Assembly: GCA_031365725.1 (NCBI GenBank) | Contig: JANLYQ010000019.1 | Location: 683 to 64,682, forward strand | Direction: 5' to 3' | Length of the DNA stretch: 64,000 bases | Source of the DNA: Sporichthyaceae bacterium | GTDB lineage: Bacteria > Actinomycetota > Actinomycetes > JACCUZ01 | Shown: positions 21,546 through 59,777 of the stretch, piece after piece | Layout of the letters: each line of letters opens with the position of its first letter | How positions within the stretch are numbered: the first letter of the stretch is position 1 | Made by a program: the position numbers and the translations under genes | Notes under the pieces: generated by a model | Databases searched by the model: none | Seen by the model: only the letters and a program-made list of their open reading frames with translations | Told to the model about the DNA's origin: nothing

Positions 21546-21809
21546 CTAGCGAGTCGTACCGCTGCGCAGCACCTCACGGCGGCGAGTGAACTCGTCCTCG
21601 TCGATCTCGCCGCTGGCGAACCGGCGTGCGAGGACGTCCTCAGGCCGATCCGTGGGCGTCCCGGTCCGCACACCTGGCTGGCCCTGGGAGCTGCGTGAAC
21701 CGCGGACCGCCCACATCACGAGTGCGATCGCCACGCCCCAGAAGAGCAGCATCAGCAAAGCCATCACGAACCACTGACCCACGCCGCCGTTCCAGTCCTG
21801 ATAGTCCAT
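21546..21809 (-). CDS. SHOCT domain small membrane protein
   Basis: MDYQDWNGG, one TM helix, then PEDVLARRFASGEIDEDEFTRRREVL; AGGAGG upstream. Confidence 0.88.
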   Translation of the reverse strand: MDYQDWNGGVGQWFVMALLMLLFWGVAIALVMWAVRGSRSSQGQPGVRTGTPTDRPEDVLARRFASGEIDEDEFTRRREVLRSGTTR

Positions 21810-21863
21810 CACGAGCAACACCTCCTGTCGTCCCACCGTACGGATCTTCGCGTCGTCCGCACC

Positions 21864-21899
21864 GGGCCGAAAGTCCCCTGAGCCGAGGACGTTCGCCGC
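21864..21899. promoter_or_regulatory. DosR/OsdR-like box pair in a divergent promoter
   Basis: GGGCCGAAAGTCCC (21864-21877) plus weaker AGGACGTTCGCCGC 22 bp downstream; matches core GGGACTWWAGTCCC. Confidence 0.65.
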
Positions 21900-21990
21900 T
21901 GCCGGTCCGGCTGCACGGACGTCAGTCTCATGACGAGGCCCGGAACTGGGCTGTCCCGCGGCTGATGGCCGCCAACTGCAGGAGTTCGCC

Positions 21991-22578
21991 ATGCGACGCA
22001 AGTCTTTCGACACTCTGCTCACCGGCGCCGGCGTGCTCGTCGCCGTGGTCATGCTGCTCGCCGGAGGCCTGCTCAGCTGGGGCAGCTCCTTCGTCTCCGG
22101 GCAGGTTCACGACCAGCTGGCGGCTCAGAAGATCTTCTTCCCGCCGAAGGGCGACGCGACCAAGGATCCCCGGATCGGTCCGTTCGTCGACAAGTACGCC
22201 GGTAAGCAGCTGGTCACGGGCGCACAGGCCCACGCCTACGCCGACCACTTCATCGCTGTGCACCTTGCCGACATCTCCGGGGGCAAGACCTACGCCGAGC
22301 TCTCCACGGCCAGCCGCGCGGCGCCCACCGACCTCAAGCTCGCCGGACAGGTGCAGACCGTCTTCCGCGGCGAGACGCTGCGGGGCCTCCTGCTCAACGC
22401 CTACGCATTCGGCACCATGGGCACCATCGCCTTCTACGCGTCGATGGTCGCCTACGTCGGTGCGGCTCTCCTGCTGCTCCTGAGCCTGCTCGGCCTGATG
22501 CACCTGCGCAGGGTCGATCCCCAGGAAGAGGTCCTGGCGGGATCTGCGCTTCGGCGCCAGGCACCCGTCACGGCCTGA
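21991..22578 (+). CDS. Two-TM membrane protein of unknown function
   Basis: N- and C-terminal TM helices flank a loop with QLAAQKIFFP, AYADHFIAVHL, GKTYAEL, FRGETLRGLLLNAY; AGGAG RBS. Confidence 0.8.
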   Translation: MRRKSFDTLLTGAGVLVAVVMLLAGGLLSWGSSFVSGQVHDQLAAQKIFFPPKGDATKDPRIGPFVDKYAGKQLVTGAQAHAYADHFIAVHLADISGGKTYAELSTASRAAPTDLKLAGQVQTVFRGETLRGLLLNAYAFGTMGTIAFYASMVAYVGAALLLLLSLLGLMHLRRVDPQEEVLAGSALRRQAPVTA

Positions 22579-22612
22579 CCGGCACGAGTCGACGCGGCGG
22601 GGCCAGGCGACC

Positions 22613-23059
22613 ATGATGGACAAGCGTGAGCTGCTCGTCCTGTCCAGGCGAGAGTGCATCGCCTATCTGCAGGGACAGAACGTGGGACGAGTCGTCTTCA
22701 CCGAACGGGCGCTTCCGGCCGTCATGCCGGTGTCGTACGCCGTCCTGGACGACGCTCTGGTCATGTCGACCGCGGCGGGGTCGAGGTTGGCTGTGGCCGC
22801 TCGTGGCGGCGTCCTCGCCTTCGAAGTGGATCATCTCGACCCGGTCACCCGCACCGGGTGGAGCGTGGTCGTCACGGCGCTTCCCGAGGCCGTCATCGCT
22901 CCACAGGACCGGGCCCGAGTCTCGTTGGTCCTCGACAGCTGGGCGCCCGGCTCTCACGACCTGCTGCTGCGGCTCCCGTTGACCGTCATCACCGGTCGGC
23001 GGATCGAAAGCACTCCCGCGCTGGTGCCGCCTGGGATAGACACGACCTATGAGCACTGA
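22613..23059 (+). CDS. Pyridoxamine 5'-phosphate oxidase-like split-barrel protein
   Basis: LSRRECIAYL..GRVVF..LPAVMPVSY, VLAFEVD, GWSVVV. Confidence 0.85.
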   Translation: MMDKRELLVLSRRECIAYLQGQNVGRVVFTERALPAVMPVSYAVLDDALVMSTAAGSRLAVAARGGVLAFEVDHLDPVTRTGWSVVVTALPEAVIAPQDRARVSLVLDSWAPGSHDLLLRLPLTVITGRRIESTPALVPPGIDTTYEH

Positions 23060-23720
23060 GGCCGCGGCGCCCGGACCGATCCGGGTCTTCCTGCTCGACG
23101 ACCACGAGGTGGTCCGTCGCGGCCTGCGGGACCTGCTCGAGTCCGCAGGCGACATCGAGGTGGTCGGGGAGTCCGGGTCGGCGCAGGAGGCCATCCGGCG
23201 CATCCCGGCACTCAAGCCCCGGGTGGCGATCCTCGACGGACGTCTCCCGGACGGGTCGGGCGTGGACGTGTGCCGCGAGATCCGCTCCCGCGACCCGGGG
23301 ATCTCAGCGCTCATCCTCACGTCGTACGACGATGACGAAGCACTTTTCGCAGCCATCATGGCCGGGGCCTCGGGCTACCTGCTCAAGCAGGTGCGCGGAC
23401 ACGACCTGCTGGACGCGGTCCGTCGAGTTGCTGCCGGACAGTCCCTGCTCGACCCCGCCATGACCAGCCAGGTGCTCCAGCGACTGCGAGAGGGTCCGCA
23501 GCTGGACTCTGCCCTCGACGGCCTGACCGCCCAGGAGCGTCGGGTCCTCGACCTCATCGGGGAGGGGCTCACCAACCGGGCCATCGGAGAGCGCCTGTTC
23601 CTCGCCGAGAAGACGGTGAAGAACTACGTGTCCAGCCTGCTGGCCAAGCTCGGCCTGCAGCGGCGGACGCAGGCAGCGGTCTTTGCGAGCAAGCACCCCG
23701 GTGCAGGCAAGCATGAGTGA
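23049..23720 (+). CDS. dosR: DosR/DevR-like NarL-family response regulator
   Basis: VFLLDDHEVVRRGL, ILDGRLPDGSG, LTSYDDDEAL, GYLLKQVRG, HTH GLTNRAIGERLFLAEKTVKNYVSSLLAKLG (near-identical to the DevR recognition helix). Confidence 0.88.
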   Translation: MSTEAAAPGPIRVFLLDDHEVVRRGLRDLLESAGDIEVVGESGSAQEAIRRIPALKPRVAILDGRLPDGSGVDVCREIRSRDPGISALILTSYDDDEALFAAIMAGASGYLLKQVRGHDLLDAVRRVAAGQSLLDPAMTSQVLQRLREGPQLDSALDGLTAQERRVLDLIGEGLTNRAIGERLFLAEKTVKNYVSSLLAKLGLQRRTQAAVFASKHPGAGKHE

Positions 23721-24708
23721 CCCCGGGCTCGTCCGCGACATCGTCGGCGCAGCCGTGCAGGCCCCGTCAGCGCACAACGCGCAACCGTGGCGATTCGTCG
23801 CGCACGGTGACGTCATCGAGCTCTGGGCCGACCCGTCCCGTGCGTTGCCGGTGCTCGACCCACATGGCCGTGCGGCGCACCTCAGTTGCGGCGCCGCCCT
23901 GCTCTTCGCTCGAGTCGACGCGGCCAGCAAGGGTCTCTCCGGCCAGACCGCGCTCCTGCCGGACCTGTCGAAGCCGGACCACCTGGCCGATCTCACCCTC
24001 GGGACGGGCCGGGTCGAGCCCGAGCTGGCTACCCTCCGACCGGCCATCGACACCCGACACACCGATCGCGGAACCTTTGACGAGAGCACACCCGTGCCCG
24101 CCGACCTCCTCCGGGCCCTCGCCGACGCCGTGCAGGTCGAGGGCTCCTGGCTGCGGGTCGTCAGCAACACCAGTGACTCGGCAGCTGTCGCCGTGCTGCT
24201 GTCACGGGCGGACGACGTCCAGTCGGCGGATCCGGACTACCGGGCCGAGCTCGGCGCGTGGACCGGACGATCGGACGACAGCCCGGACGGCGTGCCCTCG
24301 TCTGCGGTGCCGACGGTGGCCCCGTCCGAGCGAGGCTCGAACTACCGGCTGCGCGACTTCGACACCGACCGAGAGGCCGCCGGGCCACGATGGGCGGGTG
24401 AGCCACCACTGCCTGAGCATCCCGCGGTCGTCGTCCTCGGCACCGCCGACGATGACGCGGCAGCGTGGCTGCGCGCCGGCGGCGCCCTGGGTCGGTTGCT
24501 GCTCACGGCAACGGCGTCCGGCCTGGCCGCCTCTCCGATGACGCAGGCCCTGGAGGTGGACGACACCCGGGCCCGACTGGTCCAGGAGCTCGGCCTGGTC
24601 GGGCATCCGCAGATGGTGCTACGGATCGGGTTCCGGCCGGCGGACGACTCGCCCCCGCTCGGGCACTCACTGCGACGACCGGTGGACGAGATCCTCGAGA
24701 TGCGCTGA
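23713..24708 (+). CDS. Acg-family FMN-binding nitroreductase-like protein
   Basis: APSAHNAQPWRF, DPHGRAAHLSCGAAL, RHTDR, WLRAGGALGRLLL, PQMVLRIG. Confidence 0.9.
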   Translation: MSDPGLVRDIVGAAVQAPSAHNAQPWRFVAHGDVIELWADPSRALPVLDPHGRAAHLSCGAALLFARVDAASKGLSGQTALLPDLSKPDHLADLTLGTGRVEPELATLRPAIDTRHTDRGTFDESTPVPADLLRALADAVQVEGSWLRVVSNTSDSAAVAVLLSRADDVQSADPDYRAELGAWTGRSDDSPDGVPSSAVPTVAPSERGSNYRLRDFDTDREAAGPRWAGEPPLPEHPAVVVLGTADDDAAAWLRAGGALGRLLLTATASGLAASPMTQALEVDDTRARLVQELGLVGHPQMVLRIGFRPADDSPPLGHSLRRPVDEILEMR

Positions 24709-24712: not shown

Positions 24713-26431
24713 GTGGACGAGCAGCCGACCCTGCCCAAGGCACCGGGCAGCTCACAGCTCCCGGACGCCATGCGCCTCAAGCTGGACGACCTTCTGCGCC
24801 AGCTCATCGATCGCGCGCAAGAAGTGCTTCGCACCGAGGGTCGCCTGCAGGGCCTGGTCCGCGCCACCCAGTCGATCACGTCCCATCTCGACCTCCCGAC
24901 CCTGTTGCAGCACATCGTCGTGGAGGCGCGGATCCTGATCGGTGCGCGCTACGCGGCACTGGGCGTCGTGGGTGACAACGGGCTGCTCACCGAGTTCGTG
25001 CACGACGGGATGGACGCGGAGACTGTCGCGCGGATCGGTCATCTCCCGACGGGGGGCGGCTTGCTGGGCGAGCTGATCACGCGGCCGGTGCCGCTGCGCC
25101 TGGCCCATCTGTCCGACCATGCGTGTGCGGTCGGCTTCCCACCCGGGCATCCGCCGATGACCTCATTCCTGGGTGTGCCCGTCCGCATCCGCAGCCAGGT
25201 CTACGGCAACCTCTACCTGACCGAGAAGGCTGATGGGACGGACTTCACCCGCGAGGACGAGGACCTTGCCCTGTCCTTGGCGGCTGCGGCTGCGGCTGCC
25301 ATCGACAACGCGCGCCTCTACGACACCGTGGCCCGTCGTGAGCACTGGCTCCAAGCGGCCAGCGCCCTCACCAACGATTTGATGCGCATCGAGGACCGCG
25401 ACGAGGCCCTGGCCCTCGCGACGCTCGCCGTCCAGACTGCGGCTGAGGCCGACCATGCCGCCGTACTCGTCAGCGACGGGGCCGGGGTCATGCGCTTCGC
25501 AGCCGCGGTGGGACCGGATGCTGACCGCGTCATCGGGGTGGCTCCTCCGGAAGGCTCACCGGTCCTGCTTGCCGCCCGCGAGCGACGTCCGGTGTTGTTC
25601 GACGACCTGCGCGAGCACGACGAGATTCACGGTCCCATCAAGGACCTCGGGATCGGCCCGATGCTCGCCGTGCCTCTTGCCGCGCAGGACCAGGTGCTCG
25701 GAGCGTTAGTGCTGGGAAATCGCCCTGGTCGGGCCATCTTCACCCCGCAGGACGTGCACATGGTGCAGGAGTTCGCGACCCAGGCAGCGCTCGTGCTCCT
25801 GGTCGCTGCCTCGCGTGCAGCCAGCAAGGAGCTCGACCTCGCCGAGGAACGGGCCCGCATCGCGCGGGACCTGCACGACCACGCGATCCAGGGCATCTTC
25901 GCCGTCGGCCTGGGCCTCAACGGGCTCTCCCTCAAGGTCGGCGGGACCGACGGTGAGCGCATGATCGAGCTCGTCGATCAGCTCGACGATGCGATCAAGT
26001 CGATAAGACGCAGCATCTTCGCCCTGCAACGACCTGTCGGCTCAGACCCCGGGCTGCTGGCCCGACTCGGCCGAGTCGTCGCGCGTGCGACAGAGACCCT
26101 GGGATTTGCTCCCGTATTGCGGACCCACGGTGACCTCGACGGCGCAGTCTCCATGGACGTGGGCGATGACCTGCTCGCCGTCGTGGCCGAGTCTCTGTCC
26201 AACGTGGTGAGGCATGCCGGGGCCACCAGCGTCGGCGTGTCGGTACAGGTGGGACTCGACCTGGTCCTGGAGGTCCACGACGACGGTGTCGGGATCGGTT
26301 CACCCACGCGAACGAGCGGCTTGGCCAACATGCGCAGTCGGGCCGAGCGGCACGGTGGCAGTTGCGAGATCGGAGTCGGAACAGCGGGCGGCACGTCGAT
26401 CCGCTGGGCAGTACCACTGACAGGGGACTGA
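24713..26431 (+). CDS. DosS/DosT-like double-GAF sensor histidine kinase
   Basis: GARYAALGV, GFPPGHPPMTSFLGVP (heme-ligand His motif of DosS GAF-A), GNLYLTEK, RIARDLHDHAIQ, ESLSNVVRHA, DDGVG, SGLANM. Confidence 0.9.
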   Translation: MDEQPTLPKAPGSSQLPDAMRLKLDDLLRQLIDRAQEVLRTEGRLQGLVRATQSITSHLDLPTLLQHIVVEARILIGARYAALGVVGDNGLLTEFVHDGMDAETVARIGHLPTGGGLLGELITRPVPLRLAHLSDHACAVGFPPGHPPMTSFLGVPVRIRSQVYGNLYLTEKADGTDFTREDEDLALSLAAAAAAAIDNARLYDTVARREHWLQAASALTNDLMRIEDRDEALALATLAVQTAAEADHAAVLVSDGAGVMRFAAAVGPDADRVIGVAPPEGSPVLLAARERRPVLFDDLREHDEIHGPIKDLGIGPMLAVPLAAQDQVLGALVLGNRPGRAIFTPQDVHMVQEFATQAALVLLVAASRAASKELDLAEERARIARDLHDHAIQGIFAVGLGLNGLSLKVGGTDGERMIELVDQLDDAIKSIRRSIFALQRPVGSDPGLLARLGRVVARATETLGFAPVLRTHGDLDGAVSMDVGDDLLAVVAESLSNVVRHAGATSVGVSVQVGLDLVLEVHDDGVGIGSPTRTSGLANMRSRAERHGGSCEIGVGTAGGTSIRWAVPLTGD

Positions 26432-26460: not shown

Positions 26461-27348
26461 TCATTCGTGGCGCGGCACGACCGCCACCGCACAGGTCGCC
26501 AGGTGCAGGACGCCGTGGCTCACCGAGCCGAGGAGAAGACTCGTCATCGATCCGCGTCCTCGGCATCCGACGACCAAGAGCTGTGCCTCTGCTGCGGCTC
26601 CGGTAAGTGCACGCACCGGGTGGTCGTGCACGACCCGTGAGTGCACGACGACCCCGGGGTACGTCGCCGACAACGTGTCGAGCGCAGCCCGCAAGACGTC
26701 GCGTGCCCGCACGAGGAGCTCCGCCGTCTCGTCCCGGAGCGGGAACCCGGCTGCCATGACGTGCGGCGCGAGAGGATCGGTCCAGGCCAGAACTGCAGTC
26801 AACGACGTCCCCGACTCGGCGGCCTCACGAAACGCCCACTCGAGAGCTGCATCGGAGAGCGCCGTGCCGTCAACACCGACGACGATGCCTACCCCACTCG
26901 TGATCTGGGTGGGGACGGCGACAACGGGACAGTGGGCGTAGGTGGCCACGTTCATCGTCGTCGATCCAGCCAGCAGGGTGCTCAGCGCGCTGACGCCGTG
27001 CGAGCCGACGACGACGATCTCTGCACGCTCCGACTCGGCGATGAGAGCCGCCTTGGCGGAGTTCGATGCGAGCTCGGTCTGGATGGACAGGTCACGAGCG
27101 ATCGACCGGGCTTGTTGCAGCTGCTCGTGCAGCAGACGCGTGGCGGTGACCTCACGCTCCCGCGTGAGCGTGGGGAGCGAACCGCCTCCGATCATCACGT
27201 CGCTGAAGGCAGGGTCAAGGGCATGCACCAGCCGCACCGGTGCGCCCCGCCGGGCGGCGTAACGCAACCCCCACGCCAGCGCCTGATGTGACCCCGCCGA
27301 GCCATCGACCCCGATGACCACCGGGAGCACGCTGGTGTCTGTACTCAT
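26461..27348 (-). CDS. Universal stress protein (two USP domains)
   Basis: VVIGVDGS, VVVGSHG..LLAGSTT, IVVGVDGT, LVVGCRGRG..LLGSVS. Confidence 0.92.
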   Translation of the reverse strand: MSTDTSVLPVVIGVDGSAGSHQALAWGLRYAARRGAPVRLVHALDPAFSDVMIGGGSLPTLTREREVTATRLLHEQLQQARSIARDLSIQTELASNSAKAALIAESERAEIVVVGSHGVSALSTLLAGSTTMNVATYAHCPVVAVPTQITSGVGIVVGVDGTALSDAALEWAFREAAESGTSLTAVLAWTDPLAPHVMAAGFPLRDETAELLVRARDVLRAALDTLSATYPGVVVHSRVVHDHPVRALTGAAAEAQLLVVGCRGRGSMTSLLLGSVSHGVLHLATCAVAVVPRHE

Positions 27349-27411
27349 CGAATCCTCCGTGTAGCACTAGGGTGCCGAAACCTTCGTCAGCCCGCCCGCT
27401 GGGATCGCACC

Positions 27412-28293
27412 TCAGACAGTCCTGTCTGGATCACTGGTGACAGACCGCGGGACGACCAGGACCGGGCACGGCAAGGCAGCAAGCACGGCATGACTGACGG
27501 AGTCCAGCGTCATGCCGGCCAGAGCCATCGGCCCCCGGGAGCCGATCACGAGCATCCTGGCTCCGACAGCCTGGTCGATGAGGGCTGATGTAGCCGGCTG
27601 GTCGGTCAGTGTCCGTTCTACTGTCACCGTGGGGTCCGCGACGGTGACTGTGGCCACCAGGTCAGCGCAAAGGGCAGCTGCCCGCGCATGGGCCGACTCA
27701 GCGGTCTCTCCGTTCACTTGCCGGTAGGCATGCAGCACGGTGACGTGACCGGACGGAGAGGCGTAGGTCTGCGCAGCCTCGATGATCCTGGCGGCCTCCT
27801 CGTCCGGCTCCGCGATACCGACAACGATGTGTCGCACGCCGGAGGTCTCGCGCAGAGGTGTGTGCACCGGCACGACCAGGACCGGGCAGGCCGCGGCCCG
27901 CAAGAGCTGCTGGCTGGTGGTGTCCATGGCGAAAGCGGGTCGTTCACCGGGGCCGTGTGAACCCAGGACCAGAAGCCGGCAGCCCGCCAGGGTCGCCTGC
28001 ACATCGGCTGCGCTCGGCTGGTCGAGGGTCCGGGTGGCGATGGACACGTCTGGTCGCCGATCACGTTCTCGAGCTGCGGAGTCGCGGAGGGTGTGCTCCA
28101 TCCGCTCGACGGCGTACTGCATCTCCCGACGACGGGCCTGGACCGTGAGATCTGGGTTGTCGACGTCGTGCACCAGCGCCACCACCAGGAGAGGTACGCC
28201 GAGACGGGCCGCTTCCTCGGCCGCTGCGTCGACCAGACGCTCAGCATGGGGGTGGCCGTCGTGAGCGACCACCACTGGACCCGTGGTCGTCAT
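27412..28293 (-). CDS. Universal stress protein (two USP domains, divergent)
   Basis: VVVAHDG, LVLGSHG, CPVLVVP, LVIGSRG..LDSVSHAVL; ATG 28293 overlaps ppdK stop. Confidence 0.88.
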   Translation of the reverse strand: MTTTGPVVVAHDGHPHAERLVDAAAEEAARLGVPLLVVALVHDVDNPDLTVQARRREMQYAVERMEHTLRDSAARERDRRPDVSIATRTLDQPSAADVQATLAGCRLLVLGSHGPGERPAFAMDTTSQQLLRAAACPVLVVPVHTPLRETSGVRHIVVGIAEPDEEAARIIEAAQTYASPSGHVTVLHAYRQVNGETAESAHARAAALCADLVATVTVADPTVTVERTLTDQPATSALIDQAVGARMLVIGSRGPMALAGMTLDSVSHAVLAALPCPVLVVPRSVTSDPDRTV

Positions 28294-31043: not shown

Positions 31044-32104
31044 GTTGCGGCACTTCCGGCCTTCGTCATGACGACCTTGAGTGCCCCGGTGTCGGCTGCT
31101 CGACCGAACACGTCATACGCCTCGACCATCTGGTCGAGCTCGAAGGTGTGCGTGACCAGAGCGGACACCTCGAGCTGGTGGTGGGCCAGCAGGCGCAGCA
31201 GCATCGGTGTGGTCGAGGTGTCGACCAAGCCGGTGGTCAGTGTGATGTCCTTGATCCACAGAGACTCGAGATGCAGGGTGGCCGGCGCGCCATGCACACC
31301 GATGTTGGCGACCCGGCCGCACGGCCGGACCAGTTCCGTGCAGAGCTCGAACGTCTCCGGCGTTCCCACCGCTTCCATCACCACATCAGCCCCGAGACCG
31401 TCGGTGAGGTCGTCGACAAGGCCCTTCGGGTCCGAACCGCCCTCTCCGGCCAGGACCACGACGTCGGCCCCAGCCCGCTTGGCTGCCTCCAAGCGCGCGG
31501 GCACCCGATCGACGACGACGATGTGCGTGGGGGAGAACAAGCGTGCCGTGAGCACGGCCGCGAGTCCGATCGGACCGGCCCCGACGATGACGACGGTGTC
31601 GCCGGGACGGACCTGCCCGGAGAGGACACCGACCTCGTAGCTGGTAGGGAGGATGTCTGCGAGCATCACGGCACTGGCGGCCGAGAGCGTGGCCGGAAGT
31701 GCGTGCAGCGCGTTGTCAGCGAACGGCACCCGGACGTACTCTGCCTGGACTCCGTCGATCAGGTGTCCCAGAACCCAACCGCCACCGCCGAGGCACTGCC
31801 CGTACCGGCCCTCCCGGCAGAACCTGCACCGCCCGCAGCCGGTGATGCAGGAGACCAGCACCCGGTCGCCCGGCTGTACCGACCGCACACCACGTCCGAT
31901 CGCGACAACAGTCCCAACGGCCTCATGACCAAGGATCCGTCCGGGTTCGACCTCGGGTACGTCCCCTTTCAGGATGTGCAGATCGGTGCCGCAGATGGTG
32001 ACGGCATCGACACTGACGATGGCGTCGAAGTCGTCCTTCAGCTCGGGGTCCGGGACCTCGTCCCAGGACATCTGACCGACACCGTGATACACGAGTGCGT
32101 GCAT
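31040..32104 (-). CDS. Zinc-dependent (MDR) alcohol dehydrogenase
   Basis: TICGTDLHI, LGHEAVG, CITGCGRCRFC..C, DILPTSYEVG, GAGPIG; stop overlaps ppdK ATG. Confidence 0.93.
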   Translation of the reverse strand: MHALVYHGVGQMSWDEVPDPELKDDFDAIVSVDAVTICGTDLHILKGDVPEVEPGRILGHEAVGTVVAIGRGVRSVQPGDRVLVSCITGCGRCRFCREGRYGQCLGGGGWVLGHLIDGVQAEYVRVPFADNALHALPATLSAASAVMLADILPTSYEVGVLSGQVRPGDTVVIVGAGPIGLAAVLTARLFSPTHIVVVDRVPARLEAAKRAGADVVVLAGEGGSDPKGLVDDLTDGLGADVVMEAVGTPETFELCTELVRPCGRVANIGVHGAPATLHLESLWIKDITLTTGLVDTSTTPMLLRLLAHHQLEVSALVTHTFELDQMVEAYDVFGRAADTGALKVVMTKAGSAAT

Positions 32105-32196
32105 GATCTGCCTCCTCAGAGCGTTGCGGCGGATCGGCGAATGCATCCGACGCTGTCTACAACTGCACGCTAGGCCGGCCGCAACGACTGGCGGCA

Positions 32197-32232: not shown

Positions 32233-32302
32233 CGCCAACACGTATCTTCGGCCTCTTTGCCCAGCTGTGGCTGAGGGGCTTGTCTGACCGTAGGAGGACC
32301 CC

Positions 32303-51086: not shown

Positions 51087-51149
51087 TGAGGACCTCCTGC
51101 TGACGCCTTCTTGGCGTCCACCCTTGCCCGCACCTTCGTCGCGTGGCGA

Positions 51150-51163
51150 GAGTCTTAGGTCCC
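51150..51163. promoter_or_regulatory. DosR-like box upstream of the DUF4389 gene
   Basis: GAGTCTTAGGTCCC (reverse GGGACCTAAGACTC). Confidence 0.55.
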
Positions 51164-51212: not shown

Positions 51213-53798
51213 TCAGCCCGTTCGCCGGCGCGGGTAGGTCTTGTGCGCGGCATCGACGAGTGGGATCGTCGCGGCGGCCACGAGGCAGAAAAGCCACCCG
51301 GTCGTGGTGGGCCAGGATCCGCCGAGTAGGTCGGCGACCCACGGGATCCCCAGAAACGCCACGAGCAGGGCCGCCTCGACAGCGACAGCAAGCAGGATGA
51401 ACGGGTTGCTCCTCGGGTCGCAACGCCACGCCGGGAGCGTCTCGCTGCGACAGGTGAAGGCGTTCGCGATCTGCGCCACAGCGACAACAGCGAATGCCGA
51501 CCCGGACGCCGAGGCCAGCAGTCCGGGAGAGGGGACATCGCCGAAGCCCCAGCCGTGGGCGAGAAGAATTGTGAGGAAGGCCCCCATCGAGAGCAACGCC
51601 TCGGTCGGACCGAGCACCAGCAGGGCCCGGCGCATCAAGCCTCCGTCGACGACCGACCGCGTCCGTCTCGGTCCATTCATGGCGCGCTCGTTGGCAGGCT
51701 CAGCGCCGAGGGCGAGCGCGGGCAGCATATCGGTGCCGATGTCGAGGGCAAGGACTTGAAGGACGCCGATGGCGAGTGGGATCTTGCTGCCCGTCAGCGC
51801 CCACAGGACGAACGGGACCAGCTCGGCCACGTTGTCGGTCAGGTGGAAGGTCAGGAAGCGCCGGATGTTGGAGAAGGTTCCCCGGCCCAGTTGGATGGCC
51901 TTCGGGATGGTCGCAAAACTGTCGTCCAGAAGGACCAGGTCCGCCGCCTCGCGAGCGACGTCGCTGCCCGACAGGCCCATCGCAATGCCGACGTCGGCCT
52001 CACGCAGAGCCGCCGCGTCGTTGACGCCGTCACCGGTCATCGCCACGACGTGGCCGTGCGACCGCAGGGCCCGGGCGATGCGTAGCTTGTCGGCCGGGGT
52101 CACTCGGGCGACGACGGCGCCGTCCTCGCGGTCGAGCAGCTCAGCGATCTGGGAGTCAGTCTCGGGCAGGTCGACGCCCTCCACGACAGTGCCGGTCGGC
52201 CCCAGGAGACCGACCTCCACAGCGATGGCGGCTGCCGTGGCTGCGCTGTCGCCGGTCACCATGGCCAGCCGGATCCCGGCACCTCGGCACAGCGCCACCG
52301 CTGTCGCGACCTCGGCTCGCGGCGGGTCCTGGATGCCGATGAGGGCAAGAAGCTCGAGATCGTGTCCAACGGCGGTCTCCAAGCCGCCTTCGTCGGTGGG
52401 CGGCCCGACGGCACGAGCTCGCGCCACGGCCATGACCCGACGTCCGCGTCCCGACATGTCGGCGAGCTGGGACCACTCGGTCCTCGTCGGTGTGAGGCCG
52501 GTGCATCGGTCCAGCAGCACCTCGGGTGCACCCATGACGTATGCCGTGCCGCCGACGATAGCCGCACTCGATCGCGTGGCAGCGGTGAACGGGAGACGGA
52601 TGCTTGCCGCGGCCTGGTCGGGGCAGCCCAAGCGGTGGGCAAACGCATCGAGGGCCGCGTCCATCGGGTCGCCCTCCGCCACCCATCGACCACCGAGCTC
52701 CACGCTGCGCCCCGTGGAGCAACCGAGTGCTCCGACGGCGGCCACCGACGCGAGCACCATCGCGTCGCGAGAGGCATCGACCGTTCCTCGAGGTTCGTAG
52801 CCGGTACCGGTCACCCTCAAGCTCCCGGCCGGGGTCCAGCCCTCCACCACAGACATCTCGTTGCGGGTGAGGGTGCCCGTCTTGTCGGTGCAGATGAACG
52901 TGGTGGCGCCGAGGGTCTCGACGGCCTCCAGGTGGCGGACGAGGGCGTTGTCGGCGGCCATCCGCTGTGCCGCCCGGGCGAGGGACAGCGTGACCGTGGG
53001 CAACAGTCCCTCCGGGACGAGCGCCACCATCACCCCGACCCCGAGCAGCAACGCCGAGGTGACACCAGCACCTAGGAGGAGCGAGGTACCAGCGAGCAGG
53101 ACACCGACCGACGCGGCGATGGCGGCCACGACGATCACCAGCTTGTGCAGCTGGACGGACAGCGGGCTGGGTGGACGTTGCGCCTGATCGGTGAGCGCGG
53201 CTATGCCGGCGAGGCGGGTTGCCGTCCCGATAGCGATGACAACACCCGTCGCGTCGCCCTGGACCGCGAAGGTCCCAGCGAAGACGTCGCAGCCGACAGG
53301 CCGTGGCTGAGGGACACTCTCTCCGGTGAGCATGGATTCGTCGACCGTCAGCTCATGCGCGACCTCGATCCGGAGATCGGCACCGACGCGGTCGCCCGCC
53401 GCGAGCAGGACAACGTCGCCGCAGACCAAGTCCTCGACCGCGACGCTGATGGTGCGGCCGCCGCGCCGCACGTGGGCGGCGGCCGGCAGCATCGCGTTCA
53501 GCTGCTCGGCGGCGCGGTCCGCCTTGTGCTCCTGCAGAAAGGCAAACAGTCCGTTGAGCAGCACGATCACGACGACCGCAGCAGCCAAGGGAACCATCCC
53601 CGCCAGCAGGGCAAGCAGTGCAGCTGCCCAGAGCATGCCGGCAAAGAAGTGGGTGAGCTGAGCCATCAGCATCCGCCAGGCCGGTGTGCGACGCGGGGGC
53701 GGGACGGCGTTCGCGCCATCTCGCCGATGACGCACAAGAGCTTCCGCGGCAGAGAGTCCAGCAGGAGCTGCGGCGGTGGGCGCGGTCGACGTCGTCAC
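51213..53798 (-). CDS. P2-type cation-transporting ATPase (second paralogue)
   Basis: LTGES, VPEGL, CTDKTGTLTRNEM, GDPMD, TGDS, MTGDGVNDAAAL; GTG 53798 overlaps arcC stop. Confidence 0.93.
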   Translation of the reverse strand: MTTSTAPTAAAPAGLSAAEALVRHRRDGANAVPPPRRTPAWRMLMAQLTHFFAGMLWAAALLALLAGMVPLAAAVVVIVLLNGLFAFLQEHKADRAAEQLNAMLPAAAHVRRGGRTISVAVEDLVCGDVVLLAAGDRVGADLRIEVAHELTVDESMLTGESVPQPRPVGCDVFAGTFAVQGDATGVVIAIGTATRLAGIAALTDQAQRPPSPLSVQLHKLVIVVAAIAASVGVLLAGTSLLLGAGVTSALLLGVGVMVALVPEGLLPTVTLSLARAAQRMAADNALVRHLEAVETLGATTFICTDKTGTLTRNEMSVVEGWTPAGSLRVTGTGYEPRGTVDASRDAMVLASVAAVGALGCSTGRSVELGGRWVAEGDPMDAALDAFAHRLGCPDQAAASIRLPFTAATRSSAAIVGGTAYVMGAPEVLLDRCTGLTPTRTEWSQLADMSGRGRRVMAVARARAVGPPTDEGGLETAVGHDLELLALIGIQDPPRAEVATAVALCRGAGIRLAMVTGDSAATAAAIAVEVGLLGPTGTVVEGVDLPETDSQIAELLDREDGAVVARVTPADKLRIARALRSHGHVVAMTGDGVNDAAALREADVGIAMGLSGSDVAREAADLVLLDDSFATIPKAIQLGRGTFSNIRRFLTFHLTDNVAELVPFVLWALTGSKIPLAIGVLQVLALDIGTDMLPALALGAEPANERAMNGPRRTRSVVDGGLMRRALLVLGPTEALLSMGAFLTILLAHGWGFGDVPSPGLLASASGSAFAVVAVAQIANAFTCRSETLPAWRCDPRSNPFILLAVAVEAALLVAFLGIPWVADLLGGSWPTTTGWLFCLVAAATIPLVDAAHKTYPRRRTG

Positions 53799-54700
53799 GT
53801 CCGGGTGAGCTGCGTTCCCGCGGTGCCGGCGACGACGCTCTCGGTCTCGCAGAGCGCACCGATGGAGGCCTGACCTCCGGTGTCTTCCACGAACCGACGG
53901 GCCGCGGTGACCTTCGGCCCCATGGAGCCCGCGGGGAAGGTCATCGCGCGTAGCGTGCTGACGGTGACGTCGCGGAGCAGGCTCTGCTCCGGCGTCCCGT
54001 AGTGCGTCATTACTCCTGCGACATCGGTGAGGAGGACCAGACGGTCGGCCGCCAAGGACGTGGCGATGAGCGCTGCAACGGAGTCCTTGTCCACAACCGC
54101 GTCCACACCTGACAGCCCCTCGGGGCCGTCCAGCACCGGCACCCCTCCGCCGCCGGCCAGGATCACTGTGGTGCCGTGCGCGAGCAGGGTGCGTGCTGTC
54201 TCGATCTCCACGACGCGCACGGGGAGCGGTGATGCAACGACTCTGCGCCACCCGGCACCGTCGGGCCGGACGACCCACCCGTTCTCGGCGGCAAGCGACC
54301 GCGCCCGCTGCTCGCTGTAGACACCACCGACGAACTTGGTGGGGTTGGTGAAGGCTGGGTCGTCGGCTGCCACGACGGTCTGGGTCACTAGCGTGACGAC
54401 CGGTGTGGTGGGGTCGGCATTGGCGAGCGCCTGCTGCAGCCAGTAGCCGATGACGCCCTGGGTCTCGGCCACCAGCTCACTGAACGGATAGGGCCGAGTC
54501 AGGCTCCTGTCGGCGGCGCTCTCCAGCGCGAGCATCCCGACCTGGGGCCCGTTCCCGTGCACCAGGACCAGCTCATGCGCTCCCGCTAGTGCCGCCAAGG
54601 CGGGCGCAGCCTCGGCGATGTGCTGGAGCTGCACGGCCGAGTCGGGCTTGTCTCCACGGCGCAGCAGCGCGTTGCCGCCAAGGCCCACCACGACCCTCAC
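53795..54700 (-). CDS. arcC: Carbamate kinase
   Basis: [63 protein letters not shown]. Confidence 0.95.
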
Positions 54701-55725
54701 GTGCGCCCGTCGGCAACCGCGACGTCGGCCAGAGTGGCGACCATGACGGCCTTGATCGTGTGCATCCGGTTCTCGGCCTGGTCGAAGACGATGGATGCGG
54801 GCGACTCGAAGACCTCGTCGGTGACTTCCAGGGCCGCGAGACCGGTCTTCCGGAAGATCTCCTCGCCGACGGCGGTCCCGCGGTCGTGGAAGGCGGGCAA
54901 GCAGTGCATGAACCTGACGTCCGGGTTCTTGGTCAGGGCCAGCAGCTGGGTCGTCACCTGGTAGGGCATCAGCATCGCGATCCGGTCGGTCCACGCCTCC
55001 ACGGGCTCACCCATCGACACCCACACGTCGGTGTAGACGAAGTCGGCGTCGAGCAGTCCGGTCGCCGGATCGCCGGTGCACGTGATGCGGGCGCCGGTCT
55101 CCTCTGCGATCGCGGTCGCCGCCTTGAGGACGTCCTCGGCGTTCTGCAAGGAGGGCGGAGCGACCATACGGACGTCCATGCCCAGCATCGCCCCGGCCAC
55201 GAGCAGGGAGTTCGCCGTGTTGTCCCGCGCGTCGCCGATGAAGGCGAAGGAGATGTCCCGATCCGACGTGTGAGCGTGCTCGCGCATGGTGAGCATGTCG
55301 CAGAGTGACTGGGTCGGGTGCCACTCGTCCGTGAGGCCGTTCCACACCGGCACACCAGCAAAGGTGGCGAGCGTCTCCACAGTCGCCTGGTCGAAGCCCC
55401 GGTACTCGATGCCGTCGTACATCCGGCCCAGCACGCGAGCAGTGTCGGCGACCGACTCCTTGTGACCGAGGTGGGATCCCGACGGGTCGAGGTAGGTGAC
55501 GTGGGCACCCTGGTCGTGGGCGGCGACCTCGAAGGCGCACCGGGTGCGGGTCGATGCCTTCTCGAAGATCAGGGCGATGTTCTTGCCGGCGAGGCGCTGG
55601 ACCTCGGTCCCTTCGCGCTTGTCGCCCTTGAGCCGCGCCGCGGTGTCGAGCAGGCTGCGCCACTCGTCCGGGCTGAAGTCGAGCTCTTTGAGAAAGCTGC
55701 GCCCCCGGAGCTGACCCGCCGTCAC
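54697..55725 (-). CDS. arcB: Ornithine carbamoyltransferase (catabolic by context)
   Basis: [67 protein letters not shown]. Confidence 0.93.
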
Positions 55726-56954
55726 GCCGACACCGCCTCGCGCTCGATCGGACAGGTCATGCACCGTGGTCCGCCGCGCCCTCTGCCCAGCTCCTCGCCC
55801 ACGACCGGGATGACCCGGATGCCTTGCTCGGTGAGATAGCGGTTGGTCGTCGTGTTGCGCTCGTAACCCAGGATCACCCCGGGTGCCACTGCCAGGAAGT
55901 TGTTCCCGTCGTCCCACTGCTCGCGCTTCGCGCCCATCTCGTCGATGGGAGTCTGCAGGACCCGCAGGCTGCCCACGCCGGCCAGGCCGAGAGCCTCGGC
56001 CACGACTGGGAAGAGCTCGGCGTTCTCTTCGATCTTGAAGTCGCCGGCGTCTCCCCTCGCCCGCAGGGTGAAGGACCGCAGCTCCTCCGGCAGATAAGGG
56101 TAAAGGCAGAACGCGTCGGCAGCGATCATGGTCATCACCGTGTCGAGGTGCATGAAGGCTCGCTCTTTCGGTAGCTCCACGACGATCACGTTGTCGACGG
56201 TCCCGGCCCGGAACAGGCTGCAGGCCAGCGTCTCGACCCCCTGCGGTGTTGACCTCTCCCCCATCCCGATCATCACCGTGCGGTTGCCGATGACGGTGAT
56301 GTCGCCGCCTTCGACGGTCGCCGTGTCGTGGGCGAGCGAGTCGTTGCCGTAGAGAAAGTGGGTCCCGGCAAAGAGAGGATGGAAGTTGTAGACGACCCGG
56401 GAGTTGATCGTCTCGCCGCGTCGGGCCGGCATGGCCATCGGGTTGACCGAGACACCGTCGTAGATCCAGGCGGAGTTGTCGCGCTGGAAGAGGTGGTTGG
56501 GCAGCGGACGGAGCAGGAAGTCGTCCTTGCCGAGGTAGTCCATCAGCAAGCTCGGGGCGTGCAGCAAGGACACGACGTCACGCTTGAGGACACCGCCGAT
56601 GAGCACCTCGGCAAGCACTGGGGCCGGCGTAGAGCCGACCAGCTCGTCGAGGGGTGCGTCGAGTGCGGGTCCGAACCGGGTCGCCGTCGTGAGGCGCTCC
56701 TGGAGGAACGGCCGGGCACCCGGCTCATCGAGTGCCACGGCCAAGAGCTGGGCGAAGTGGTGGACGAGCACGCCTTCACCTTCGAGCTGTCGGGTGAACG
56801 CGTCATGTTCTTCACGGGCGCGGTCGGCCCACATCACGTCGTCGAACAGCAGTTCGTCGACGTTGTCCGGAGTGAGTCGGTCGAGCTCGATGCCGGGACG
56901 GTGCACAATCGCCTGCTTGAGCAGGCCGACCTCGGAGTCGACGTGGAACGACAT
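55722..56954 (-). CDS. arcA: Arginine deiminase
   Basis: [57 protein letters not shown]. Confidence 0.96.
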
Positions 56955-56995
56955 GGGGAAGAGCCTCTCGTGGGAGTGATGCGCGAGCGCATCGG

Positions 56996-58399
56996 TCAGC
57001 GGTAGTCGGGCACGGGGTCCGGACGGGTCATGGAGCCGCGCATCGCGAGATACACCGGGATGCCGATCAGCGAGGCAGCCCCGGCCATCAGGAACGGCCC
57101 CCACACGACGTACCAGGAGCTCCCGGTGTTGGTGGAGTAGTAGATAAAGGCGATGGACATGACCAGGGCGACGACGGCAACCGAGACGTCGAGTACGAAG
57201 CGCGGCGTCCTGCCCTGCCGGTGGTCCCGCCAGCGCCAGGTGAGCTGAGCCAGCGCCGAGAACGCGTAGGGGATGGCCGCGGTGATCCCGGTCATCAGCA
57301 CCAGCGTGGTGAAGACCGTGGCCCCGCTCGTGCCCAGGTAGCTCAAGATCACGGCGAGAGAGGCCAGTGCCGTGGAGGAGATGACACCGAAGGCTGGCAC
57401 CCCTCGACCGTTCAGCTGCGCGAAGCGTCGCGGGAACAGGCCGTCGTTGGCGGCCGCCAACGGCATCTCGGCCACGATCATCGTCCAGCCGTTGAGGGCG
57501 CCGATGCCGGAGATGATCACCGCGAGAGCCACCAGGTTGCCAGCCCACGATCCGCCGCCGACGATCACGTTCGCCGCAGCGGAGTAGGACGCCTTGTTGC
57601 CATCGAGTGCCAAGGCACTTGCCGGGAGGATCCCGAAGACCGCGACGAGAGAGAGCACGTAGACGACGCCGCTGGCAAGGGTGCCGTAGATCGTCGAGCG
57701 TCCGATGTTGCGCGCCGGGTCACGCACCTTGGCAGCCGCGACCGATGCCGTCTCGACGCCGAGATAGCTGAAGAGGCAGATGGCCATGGCGCCGCCGATC
57801 GCCGAGAGGTTGCTGCTCCCGCTGGTGTTCCACGGGGTGAAGTTCCCGGCACTGATGAAGAAGAGCCCGAGCGTCGACATCAGTGCCAACGGGAGGAACT
57901 TCAGCACGGTGGTCCAGAGCTGGAAGACGCCCATAGTCCGTACGCCGACGAGGTTCACCACGGCCGGGATCCACAGTCCGGTGAGCGCGATCAGGATGGA
58001 CCAGGCGGTGCTCCCACCCTTGTTGACGAAGGTCTCCACGTAGTACACCCAGCCCACCGCGATGGCGGCGTTGCCCGCCCAGGCGGTGATCCAGTACGAC
58101 CACGCGTTGCTGAAGCCGAGACCGTTGCCGAACGCAGCCCGGGCGTAGGCGTACGGCCCACCGTCGGCGGGGAGCCGGCGGGACATGACGGCGAACATCA
58201 TCGCCAGCGCGATCGCGCCGACCGTTGCCATGCCCATCGCGACAAGACTGATGGGACCGTAGGACGCGATCGCGTAGGGCAGGCTGAAGATGCCGACGCC
58301 AATGATGCTGCCCATGACGAGCGCAGTCGACTGGGGGAGCCCTAGTCGCTGCCCTGTCGTACTGCGGGAGACGGTCCCGCGGTCCAGTACCTGTGTCAT
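56996..58399 (-). CDS. APC-family amino acid permease (ArcD-like arginine/ornithine antiporter by context)
   Basis: [34 protein letters not shown], about 12 TM helices. Confidence 0.88.
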
Positions 58400-58471
58400 G
58401 GCGACCTCTCCGACAAGGGCCAGCCCCTCATCCAGCAGCGCCACGCAACCACGGCTCGGGCTCGGTCGTCA

Positions 58472-58518
58472 GGGCCAAAAGTCCCGGTGCGCCCTGCTGG
58501 ACGGGAGGCCTCAGGCCC
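58472..58518. promoter_or_regulatory. DosR-like box upstream of the arc operon
   Basis: GGGCCAAAAGTCCC (58472-58485) and weaker GAGGCCTCAGGCCC (58505-58518). Confidence 0.68.
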
Positions 58519-58641
58519 GGCCGAGGAAGGCAGGACCCGCGGCCTTTCGGACCACGTCATCGGATCGCTAGACCGACGGAGTTGCTGCAGGTGAGTCTGT
58601 TCTCGTCTTCTCCGCAATCGCGTCCGCCTACCGCATCTCGT

Positions 58642-58743
58642 AGGCTGGTCCTGGCCACGACGGCCCTCTCCCATGTCGTTCCCGGTGGTGGAGCCGGAGG
58701 GGCTGGCTTGGGCTACGAGCTGCTCATCGCTGAAGGCGTCCCG
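58642..58743 (+). pseudogene. Possible fragment of a lysylphosphatidylglycerol-synthase TM (flippase-like) gene
   Basis: RLVLATTALSHVVPGGGAGGAGLGYELLIAEGVP resembles that family's internal motif; no credible start. Confidence 0.35.
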
Positions 58744-58801
58744 AGAGCCACAACCAACCGCGGCGCCACGACCTCGGCCGGCTCCCGCTATCCCGGACCC
58801 G

Positions 58802-58815
58802 AGGACTTTCGGCAC
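58802..58815. promoter_or_regulatory. DosR-like box upstream of the CPBP gene
   Basis: AGGACTTTCGGCAC, 35 bp before ATG 58851. Confidence 0.5.
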
Positions 58816-58850
58816 TGGCCATCGGCCGGGCACAGCGTGAGTGTTGTGCC

Positions 58851-59777
58851 ATGGCAGTCGAACCGGTGAGTGCGACGAGGGCAGAGTTGGCAGACGGTCG
58901 AGGGGCGCCGCTCGGAGCGAACGTCTTAGACCGCTTGGATGGCGAGGCTGACCGCGACGGTCGCGTCCTGAGGTGGGTGCGTTCGCATCCGCTGTCGTCT
59001 TTCGTGCTGCTGACGTACGCCGTGTCCTGGGCCTACTGGGTGCCCCTCGTGCTGACCGGTCACGTCGTGCGACTTGGTTCGGCCGCGACCCAGTTTCCGG
59101 GACTTGTCGGGCCGCTGGTGGCAGCGTTCGTGCTGACTGCCCTGACTGGCGGCTGGGCCGGGATTCGCGACTTGTCCTCGCGGGTGCTGAGGTGGCATGT
59201 GCCGGCGCGGTGGTGGCTGTTTGCGGTGGGAACGCCACTCGTGCTGCTCGGGCTCACTCTCGTGGCGCTGGCCATCGGTCCGGGGACGCCCGCGCTCGCC
59301 GGCTTCGGCCGGATGGCCGGCTTGCCCCAGTGGGGGGTGCTGTTCGTCTGGGTCGCGCTGATCGTCGGAGCGATCAGTGAGGAGGCGGGCTGGCGCGGGT
59401 ACGCGCTGCCGATGTTGCGCCGCCACAACGACGTCCTGAAATCAAGCCTTCTGCTGGTCCCGATCTGGGCTGGCTGGCACCTGCCGCTGCTCTTCCTGCT
59501 CAAGAGCTACCGCGACCTCGGGCCGGTCGGTGTCCCCGGCCTCCTGATCGGGTTGGCGTCCGCTTCGATCATCCTGACCTGGCTCTATGAGTCTGCGGCC
59601 AGCAGCGTGCTGATCGCGGCGGTGTGGCACGGCACGTTCAACCTGACGTCGGCCACCGACGGGGCACACGGAACGGTCGCGGCAGTGGTGAGCACCGGAG
59701 TGATGGCCGGAGCTGCTGTCCTTGCCTGGCGTCTGCACCGCCGGGCGAGCCTCGCCGGAGTCGCTCGCCATGGCTAG
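58851..59777 (+). CDS. CPBP (Abi/CAAX) family intramembrane glutamic protease
   Basis: SEEAGWRGYALP, WAGWHLP, AAVWHGTFN, multiple TM helices. Confidence 0.9.
   Translation: MAVEPVSATRAELADGRGAPLGANVLDRLDGEADRDGRVLRWVRSHPLSSFVLLTYAVSWAYWVPLVLTGHVVRLGSAATQFPGLVGPLVAAFVLTALTGGWAGIRDLSSRVLRWHVPARWWLFAVGTPLVLLGLTLVALAIGPGTPALAGFGRMAGLPQWGVLFVWVALIVGAISEEAGWRGYALPMLRRHNDVLKSSLLLVPIWAGWHLPLLFLLKSYRDLGPVGVPGLLIGLASASIILTWLYESAASSVLIAAVWHGTFNLTSATDGAHGTVAAVVSTGVMAGAAVLAWRLHRRASLAGVARHG

Follow-up and report, generated by a model that had tools for sequence, protein, structure and literature searches.

A predicted DosR/DevR-type hypoxia regulon centred on energy metabolism in an uncultured freshwater-sediment actinomycete

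The DNA analysed here, a 64-kb stretch of contig JANLYQ010000019.1 assigned to a Sporichthyaceae bacterium (hereafter the window), encodes a response regulator resembling DosR/DevR of Mycobacterium tuberculosis and a haem-sensor-type kinase. Both lie in an island of about 37 kb together with genes for arginine, sulfide and central carbon metabolism, which raises the question of whether this regulator controls the island, and how much of it. The sequence derives from freshwater-sediment metagenomes, and the organism is an uncultured actinobacterium. The island is probably a DosR/DevR-type hypoxia regulon of this freshwater-sediment actinomycete, with the arginine, sulfide and phosphoketolase/acetate-kinase modules plausibly belonging to it. 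As predicted, the regulon is centred on energy metabolism and differs in content from that of the mycobacteria. It thereby adds one more member, of somewhat greater breadth, to a known type of regulon, and its predicted target classes are modestly new. All box counts, gene sets and enrichment values given below refer to the 64-kb window.

Regulator, sensor kinase and operator motif

A first-pass annotation of this DNA had listed for the island a DevR-like regulator, a haem-GAF kinase, an Acg protein, four universal stress proteins (USPs), two split-barrel proteins and two P-type ATPases, and all of these assignments were confirmed by family profiles (Pfam and NCBIfam: four tandem-domain USPs, two Pyridox_ox_2 proteins and two P2-type ATPases). 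The regulator matched M. tuberculosis DevR (3c3w) with 241 bits (E 7e-71), compared with 150 bits for VraR, 120 bits for NarL of Escherichia coli and 67 bits for M. tuberculosis NarL (3eul). The alignment to DevR shows an identical recognition helix, EKTVKNYVS, and conservation of the equivalents of D54, T82, K179, K182 and N183. In the DosR-DNA structure, D54 is the phospho-acceptor, and K179, K182 and N183 are DNA contacts. The kinase, encoded 1 kb downstream on the same strand, has the domain order GAF-GAF-HisKA_3-HATPase_c and contains the motif GFPPGHPPM. Its first GAF domain (GAF-A) scored 154 bits against DosT (2vzw) and 143–146 bits against DevS, and keeps the proximal haem His (HPPM) and the distal Tyr (LYLTEK) when aligned to 2vzw, 2y8h and 2y79. 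It also has an aligned Gly in common with DosT, at a position where DevS carries Glu87. As judged from these alignments, regulator and kinase are a genuine DevR/DosT orthologue pair.

The same annotation had described eight 14-bp palindromes. All eight are present at the positions given (Table 1), and all are intergenic and upstream of genes. The pattern by which they had been defined, GGGACYWWRGTCCC, proved unsuitable: it has no exact match in the window, the eight sites deviate from it by one to four bases (sites 37483 and 58802 need four mismatches), and with up to three mismatches allowed its 24 matches show no enrichment over the 20.7 expected from shuffles. It was replaced by the relaxed DosR/OsdR form GGGMCNWWNGKCCC (GGGMC-N-WW-N-GKCCC), which fits sites 21864, 32219 and 58472 exactly, sites 38821 and 43468 with one mismatch, and sites 37483, 51150 and 58802 with two. 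With up to one mismatch this form has five intergenic matches versus a single coding match, intergenic DNA making up about 11% of the window. The consensus NNNGGGHCNWWNGNCCCBNN applied to Rhodococcus equi is essentially the same (PMC2947987). G3, C5, G10 and C12 of the 14-mer are kept in eight of eight sites; Chauhan et al. found DevR binding to depend on this G and C in either half-site (PMC3177182).

A symmetric 16-bp scoring matrix was built solely from boxes in loci around kinase homologues of relatives. The closest of these loci were from metagenome-assembled genomes of Oryzihumus (kinase 56–57%, DevR 79% identical), the others from Pseudonocardiales, Leifsonia, Antrihabitans, Mycobacterium, Streptosporangiaceae and Nesterenkonia. 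The five top-ranking matches in the window were all intergenic (58472, 32219, 21864, 43468 and 38821, in this order; scores in Table 1). Ranks 6–8 were taken by coding sites at 18782-18795, 53907-53920 and 55598-55611 (12.1, 11.9 and 10.9 bits), and ranks 9–11 by the intergenic sites 51150, 37483 and 58802. Comparison with 1000 dinucleotide-preserving shuffles of the intergenic DNA indicated clear enrichment within the window for this matrix of relatives' boxes: eight matches of at least 9 bits were observed versus a shuffle mean of 0.35 (maximum 4), and five of at least 14.5 bits versus 0.013, counts that none of the 1000 shuffles reached. Intergenic DNA between 21.4 and 58.9 kb amounts to 2.56 kb and contains all eight matches; the 3.84 kb of intergenic DNA outside these limits contains no box of at least 9 bits.

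A palindromic expectation-maximisation search of 14 island intergenic regions (2.37 kb) returned CGGGAC[T/C]TA[A/G]GTCCCG as top motif. The proposed likeness to the M. tuberculosis DosR core was thereby upheld, since this de novo motif is the mycobacterial core and the sites fit the published relaxed DosR box. A first run of the search, on all stretches called intergenic, had been swamped by a codon-like periodic signal, probably from unannotated open reading frames (ORFs). A matrix of OsdR sites from Streptomyces coelicolor was poorly specific here because the centre of the OsdR motif is GC-rich, and its top matches were GC-rich coding sequence. A search for perfect palindromes yielded nothing useful.

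These results bear on two alternative explanations. The palindromes could be chance GC-rich inverted repeats or terminator-like elements devoid of a regulatory role, and the failure of the literal pattern (no exact match, no enrichment at up to three mismatches) would fit this. The matrix ranking, the shuffles (0 of 1000 reaching the observed counts), the de novo recovery of the DosR consensus and the conservation of the box preceding the sulfide quinone reductase (SQR) gene in relatives (see below) nevertheless effectively refute this explanation, which we consider hardly credible; the boxes moreover lie upstream, not downstream, of genes, and their positions are conserved in diverged relatives. 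Alternatively, another LuxR/NarL-family regulator encoded elsewhere might bind the boxes while the DevR of the window controls its own operon only. Two DevR paralogues do occur in one locus in some relatives (L007; L numbers designate the relatives' loci or contigs), but this scenario is very improbable in view of the recognition helix identical to that of DevR, the match of the boxes to the DevR/OsdR motif and the presence of the same box before the regulator's own operon.

Promoter geometry and conservation of the boxes

Four of the boxes had been reported to be accompanied by a weaker second site exactly 22 bp away, and such sites were indeed found at 21864 (+22), 32219 (-22 and +22), 38821 (+22) and 43468 (-22 and +22). 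When every offset from 10 to 60 bp was scored for each primary site, 22 bp gave the best aggregate value, whether the full set of eight or the strong five were considered (mean -6.8 versus -15.5 for the next best offset). At the weaker boxes, second sites are located at +22 (37483, weak) and -21 (51150), and no recognisable secondary box was detected at offsets of 10–60 bp from 58472 or 58802. Offsets of 21 and 22 bp also rank first in an independent set of 14 strong boxes located on metagenome contigs. In relatives' loci, box pairs are 22 bp apart in Antrihabitans and 23 bp apart in Oryzihumus, where they are situated upstream of a homologue of hyp2TM, the first gene of the regulator operon in the window. 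At least two tandem boxes occur at every DevR promoter of M. tuberculosis, those of tgs1-Rv3131 being centred at -42.5 and -63.5 and thus 21 bp apart, and cooperative DevR binding needs helical phasing (PMC3177182).

In six of about 11 promoters, namely those of hyp2TM, the alcohol dehydrogenase (ADH), SQR, the CoA-transferase, the phosphoketolase (xfp) and the CAAX protease, a -10-like hexamer of the form NANNNT lies within a post hoc chosen distance window of 30–32 bp downstream of the proximal-box centre, which fits a predicted box centre near -42. The hexamers include CAGTCT 30 bp from the proximal-box centre at the 21864 promoter, TAGCGT 32 bp from the ADH-proximal box (with a predicted leader of about 14 nt) and CAGCAT at 31 bp at xfp. 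At the CoA-transferase (38786) and CAAX-protease (58851) genes, the box centre plus 42 coincides with the start codon; the predicted start sites suggest leaderless transcripts. Since the 21864 box is located upstream of the regulator operon, it is a putative site of autoregulation.

The highest-scoring box of the window precedes the arginine deiminase (arc) operon, whose genes (Pfam families ADI, OTCace, AA_kinase and AA_permease_2) are co-directional. The last three junctions of this transcription unit are 4-nt start/stop overlaps, and the arcDABC-ATPase operon is predicted to be translationally coupled. Among 80 metagenome contigs encoding ArcA relatives (546 kb scanned), all boxes of at least 14 bits were found directly in front of arc genes, in front of genes for USPs, DosT or DevR, or within the DosR-island contig L028. 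Strong boxes lie directly upstream of arc genes in six contigs (L031, L034, L036, L045, L055 and L058), and arcA is located inside DosR islands in L028 and L032. The island of L028 encodes DevR (68% identity), DosT (42% identity), USPs, a CBS-BON protein and an Hsp20 protein, the gene of the latter with a box directly upstream. The ArcA proteins of the boxed relatives are only 50–58% identical to ArcA of the window, and the link between box and arc genes is therefore conserved or recurrent rather than a matter of inherited intergenic sequence. The arc-ATPase neighbourhood recurs in the metagenome contigs L019, L088 and L092.

SQR matched the model NF049943 with 582 bits (cut-off 525). This model is named "type III sulfide quinone reductase, selenoprotein subtype"; the SQR gene of the window has no in-frame stop codon, and the selenocysteine (Sec) machinery of the genome is encoded 20 kb away. 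In five contexts of SQR relatives (69–78% identity; L095-L099), the SQR-DsrC-DsrE triad is kept without exception, in three of them among USP, CoA-transferase, split-barrel flavoprotein (PNPOx), nitroreductase or acetate-kinase genes. A box of 8.3–17.0 bits lies 70–78 bp upstream of the SQR ATG in all five, followed about 31 bp downstream by a TAG[C/T]GT -10 element, and in the alignment of the upstream regions the GGAC half-site and the -10 element stand out as invariant blocks in otherwise diverged DNA. The site in the window, CGGGACCTTCGGCAGG, is nearly identical to that of L096, CGGGACCAACGGCAGG. This conservation in five of five relatives raises site 37483 from a doubtful to a probable DosR box of the SQR operon. 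A gene of the CsoR/CstR family (Trns_repr_metal) is found near SQR in L096 (6939-7199) and L097 (9148-9245), so that persulfide sensing may add to or replace DosR control of this operon in some lineages.

Both modules had been counted among the regulon's members in the first-pass annotation. For the arginine module, the top-scoring box and the strong boxes before arc operons of relatives support this, and for the sulfur module the positional conservation of a weak box together with its -10 element; on sequence-based evidence, the assignment is retained in the weaker form that both plausibly belong to the regulon.

The extent of the regulon depends on the weak boxes. Only the five strong boxes, perhaps along with the SQR box, might be functional, with sites 51150 and 58802 being chance matches and the DUF4389 and CAAX-protease genes lying outside the regulon. 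This narrower version deserves appreciable weight, if rather less than an even chance: the weak sites, at 9.1–9.8 bits, score below three coding matches, nearby second sites are located at +13 or -21 instead of 22 bp, and the conservation data among the weak sites are those of the SQR box. Conversely, shuffles give 0.35 intergenic matches of at least 9 bits, whereas three are observed beyond the strong five, all of them in the island and upstream of genes, and the equally weak SQR site is conserved in five of five relatives. Taken individually, boxes 51150 and 58802 are uncertain.

Several further observations weigh against the interpretation of the island as a hypoxia regulon. The training sites of the matrix were picked with a DosR-like pattern, so that the matrix is independent of the window and not of the consensus. 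As the three coding sites (10.9–12.1 bits) outscore the weak trio, 51150 and 58802 may be chance matches. The 30–32 bp window for the hexamers was set after the data had been seen, and the arc promoter has neither a recognisable secondary box nor a -10 element at the expected distance. In L015, which is the closest arc relative (ArcD 76% identical), only an 8.4-bit site is present, and the link between box and arc genes is therefore not universal. Finally, the sequencing runs containing DNA of the window are DNA metagenomes only, with zero RNA runs among them.

The description of the locus as a boxed island of about 37 kb stands in so far as the eight sites all lie inside 21.4–58.9 kb, but the island is not uniformly boxed. 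The region from 44.4 to 50.4 kb, which encodes an MDMPI protein, an operon and two unknown ORFs, contains no credible box, and the 37 kb are therefore not one uniformly regulated block. The operon in this region (45935-49256) encodes a CN-hydrolase, a dihydropyrimidinase-like amidohydrolase and a luciferase-like monooxygenase. In the window, about 8–11 transcription units with about 25 genes are boxed. The coding site at 53907 falls in the 3' end of arcC, some 110 bp before the start of the ATPase gene (53798), and might mark an internal promoter from which this ctpF-like pump is expressed. The GC content of the island (0.686) drops slightly relative to the upstream DNA (0.717); with regard to a horizontal acquisition, no mobility genes were seen.

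Predicted circuit and regulon members

From the sequence features described above, we infer haem binding, DNA binding, promoter geometry and hypoxic induction. The DosT-like kinase, carrying haem in its first GAF domain, would sense the loss of oxygen or the binding of NO or CO and phosphorylate the DevR orthologue at the Asp equivalent to D54. Phosphorylated DevR would bind the palindromic boxes (core GGGMC-N4-GKCCC), where a strong primary box would aid the filling of weaker boxes 21–22 bp (two helical turns) away, and a proximal box some 42 bp ahead of the transcription start would allow it to recruit RNA polymerase. Predicted outputs are the regulator's own operon, four USPs, Acg and the PNPOx-like flavoproteins; three oxygen-independent, ATP-yielding routes, i.e., phosphoketolase with acetate kinase and CoA-transferase, the arginine deiminase pathway, and pyruvate phosphate dikinase (PPDK) with ADH; and, in addition, the SQR-DsrC-DsrE operon and two P2-type cation pumps.

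A different physiology, with a redox, NO/CO, growth-phase or developmental cue in place of an energy switch upon oxygen depletion, is conceivable on the grounds that redox sensing is ascribed to DevS and oxygen sensing to DosT. A role of this kind has been proposed for OsdR in Streptomyces, which in S. coelicolor governs genes of stress response and development and reaches its peak at one stage of growth (PMC5069765). Against such a role, which we regard as unlikely, the boxed genes encode overwhelmingly oxygen-independent ATP-yielding or redox-balancing enzymes. The freshwater-sediment source likewise speaks for the switch responding to oxygen depletion, as does the Gly that the kinase shares with DosT in place of Glu87 of DevS.

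The gene heading the regulator operon, hyp2TM, has no Pfam or NCBIfam match. Homologues (44–62% identity) adjoin DevR/DosT and boxes in L001, L002, L007 and L009, and arcD in L015, which points to hyp2TM as a conserved, uncharacterised member of the predicted regulon. Homologue coordinates are 4899-5480 in L001 (Oryzihumus), 4120-4683 in L007 (Streptosporangiaceae) and 3691-4260 in L015. The Streptosporangiaceae DosT locus L007 also contains a CoA-transferase homologue (57%) with a 16.8-bit box upstream. The Acg protein matched NF047509 with 297 bits (cut-off 199) and MsAcg (2ymv) with 102 bits.

DosR regulons have mostly been studied as a mechanism of tuberculosis persistence, whereas the island offers a view of the targets of this switch in a free-living sediment organism. 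Most of the predicted targets serve oxygen-free ATP supply and redox rebalancing (arginine fermentation, the phosphoketolase shunt and PPDK/ADH), and others the handling of sulfide. Since boxes of arc and sqr are conserved in distant relatives, these links look ancestral or recurrent rather than one-off, which supports an evolutionary origin of DosR in the response to environmental anoxia, and new target classes become testable, including hyp2TM. Tentatively, and with just short of an even chance in our estimation, many uncultured soil and sediment Actinomycetes might possess a conserved, undescribed DosR branch for substrate-level ATP formation (arc, phosphoketolase-acetate kinase, PPDK) and sulfide oxidation (SQR-DsrC-DsrE), in which DosR would act as master switch of fermentative maintenance energy and not only of dormancy and stress. 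More speculatively, since two pathways of the regulon make acetyl phosphate and carbamoyl phosphate, and small phosphodonors of this type can phosphorylate response regulators, activation of the regulon could feed back on itself without involvement of the kinase.

The transcription units, which were laid out after revision of the start codons, are compiled in Table 1 along with the boxes and neighbouring genes. Upstream of the island, a complete selenocysteine system is encoded beside its client (11521-21404), a formate-dehydrogenase-type molybdopterin subunit with an in-frame TGA, whose gene is followed by those of a 4Fe-4S subunit and an NrfD-type membrane subunit. In the window scan, no DosR box was found to precede these genes. 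Further upstream lies a gene for a PAS-GGDEF-EAL protein (7027-10176), and just beyond the island are two divergent genes for GAF-ANTAR regulators (60206-61896).

Table 1. Boxes, predicted transcription units (TU) and neighbouring genes in the window. Scores are those of the 16-bp matrix.
Feature	Coordinates	Strand	Score, support or context
Primary DosR box CGGGCCGAAAGTCCCC and secondary GAGGACGTTCGCCGCT 22 bp downstream	21864..21899	.	16.1 bits; upstream of TU1
Three tandem boxes, primary 32219 CGGGACCTTTGGCCCC, secondaries 32197 and 32241	32197..32254	.	16.5 bits; divergent region between ADH and PNPOx2
Weak box, gene strand CGGGACCTTCGGCAGG, and degenerate site 22 bp further upstream	37483..37518	.	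9.25 bits; 68 bp upstream of SQR ATG (37421)
Primary box AGAGACCTAGGTCCCT and secondary at +22	38821..38856	.	14.7 bits; divergent region between CoA-transferase and USP3-ackA
Primary box CAGGACCAAAGTCCCG, weak flanking sites at -22 and +22	43446..43503	.	15.3 bits; divergent region between xfp and USP4
Weak box AGAGTCTTAGGTCCCT and site 21 bp away	51129..51163	.	9.75 bits; upstream of DUF4389 gene
Top-scoring box of the window AGGGCCAAAAGTCCCG	58472..58485	.	17.7 bits; centre 79.5 bp upstream of arcD ATG (58399)
Weak box GAGGACTTTCGGCACT	58802..58815	.	9.1 bits; 42 bp upstream of CAAX-protease gene
TU1: hyp2TM, PNPOx, devR, acg, dosT	21991-26431	+	Box 21864 (16.1)
hyp2TM, conserved membrane protein, first gene of regulator operon	21991..22578	+	
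Split-barrel flavoprotein (Pyridox_ox_2), copy one	22613..23059	+	Pfam
DevR/DosR-orthologous response regulator (REC + GerE)	23049..23720	+	Pfam PF00072, PF00196
Acg-family FMN-binding nitroreductase, start codon uncertain	23683..24708	+	NF047509
DosT-like haem sensor kinase (GAF-A, GAF-B, HisKA_3, HATPase_c)	24713..26431	+	Pfam
TU2: ADH (31040-32146), PPDK (28290-31043), USP2 (27412-~28290), USP1 (26461-27348)	26461..32146	-	Box 32219, shared
TU3: PNPOx2, split-barrel flavoprotein (Pyridox_ox_2)	32303..32764	+	Box 32219, shared
TU4: type III SQR (36159-37421), DsrC/TusE-like (35843-~36157), DsrE-like (35309-35818), P2-type cation ATPase (32682-35300)	32682..37421	-	Box 37483 (9.25)
TU5: acetyl-CoA hydrolase / CoA-transferase family protein	37551..38786	-	Box 38821 (14.7), shared
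TU6: USP3 (38924-39802), acetate kinase ackA (39839-40981)	38924..40981	+	Box 38821, shared
TU7: xylulose-5-P/fructose-6-P phosphoketolase (Xfp)	40997..43381	-	Box 43468 (15.3), shared
TU8: USP4, tandem Usp domains	43531..44427	+	Box 43468, shared
TU12: DUF4389 gene	50424-51086	-	Box 51150 (9.75)
TU13: arcD permease (56996-58399), arcA arginine deiminase (55722-56954), arcB ornithine carbamoyltransferase (54697-55725), arcC carbamate kinase (53795-54700), P2-type ATPase (51213-53798)	51213..58399	-	Box 58472 (17.7)
TU14: CAAX-protease gene	58851-59777	+	Box 58802 (9.1)
FdhD	10613-11587		
selD	11521-12720	-	
tRNA-Sec	12714-12809		
selA	13081-14403		
selB	14404-16215		
Formate-dehydrogenase-type molybdopterin subunit	16216-19413		In-frame TGA 16837-16839

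Comparison with known systems

The predicted regulon shares with the DevR-DevS/DosT system of M. tuberculosis an orthologous regulator in which D54, T82 and the whole recognition helix are retained, the GAF-A(haem)-GAF-B-HisKA_3 build of the kinase, the palindromic core with its invariant G and C, boxes two helical turns apart, and, as predicted here, a proximal box near -42 and autoregulation. Target classes common to both are Acg-type nitroreductases, tandem USPs and a ctpF-like P2-type ATPase. In contrast to M. tuberculosis, the window encodes one kinase, which is co-operonic with acg, hyp2TM and a flavoprotein gene. The M. tuberculosis DosR genes hspX, narK2/narX, tgs1, nrdZ and fdxA are not found in the window; boxed instead are genes of phosphoketolase/acetate kinase, CoA-transferase, the arginine deiminase pathway, PPDK/ADH and SQR-DsrC-DsrE. 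The first-pass annotation had inferred a programme under one sensor that is much broader than in mycobacteria; the predicted regulon comprises about 25 genes in the window versus about 48 in M. tuberculosis, and the supported part of this inference is a difference in content. To our knowledge, and according to literature searches, phosphoketolase/acetate kinase, CoA-transferase, arc, PPDK/ADH and SQR are no known DosR targets in mycobacteria. In full-text searches of the literature, no report was found of control of xfp-ackA, the CoA-transferase, arcDABC or sqr-dsrC-dsrE by DosR or OsdR.

The DosR regulon predicted in silico for R. equi (Table S6 of PMC2947987) agrees with the present one in the relaxed consensus and in the approach, its boxes being no more than about 150 nt away from start codons. 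Genes for xfp and arginine deiminase exist in R. equi as well; the text consulted (PMC2947987) does not connect them with DosR boxes, whereas their counterparts are boxed here.

In S. coelicolor, OsdR/OsdK (SCO0204/SCO0203) are likewise encoded in a chromosomal island (SCO0167-SCO0219) that surrounds the two-component genes and contains many USP genes. Its predicted or tested OsdR targets comprise the Zn-dependent ADH SCO0199, the PPDK SCO0208, USPs, a PNPOx and a nitroreductase, each with a DosR-like box and several of them confirmed by electrophoretic mobility shift assays, and OsdK is considered DosT-like (PMC5069765). The OsdR consensus AGGGCCGATCGGCCCT has a GC-rich centre, in contrast to the A/T-rich centre found here and in mycobacteria. 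The Nar2 nitrate reductase is not encoded in the window. The operons arc, xfp/ackA and sqr, which are boxed here, are not mentioned among the OsdR targets.

With classical arc regulation, the predicted circuit has in common that the ATP-yielding arcDABC genes are switched on when oxygen is lacking. Classical arc operons are controlled by ANR/FNR, ArgR or ArcR. In the sediment actinomycete, the oxygen signal would in contrast reach the arc genes via a haem-GAF two-component system and an activator of the NarL family rather than via a regulator of the FNR/CRP family.

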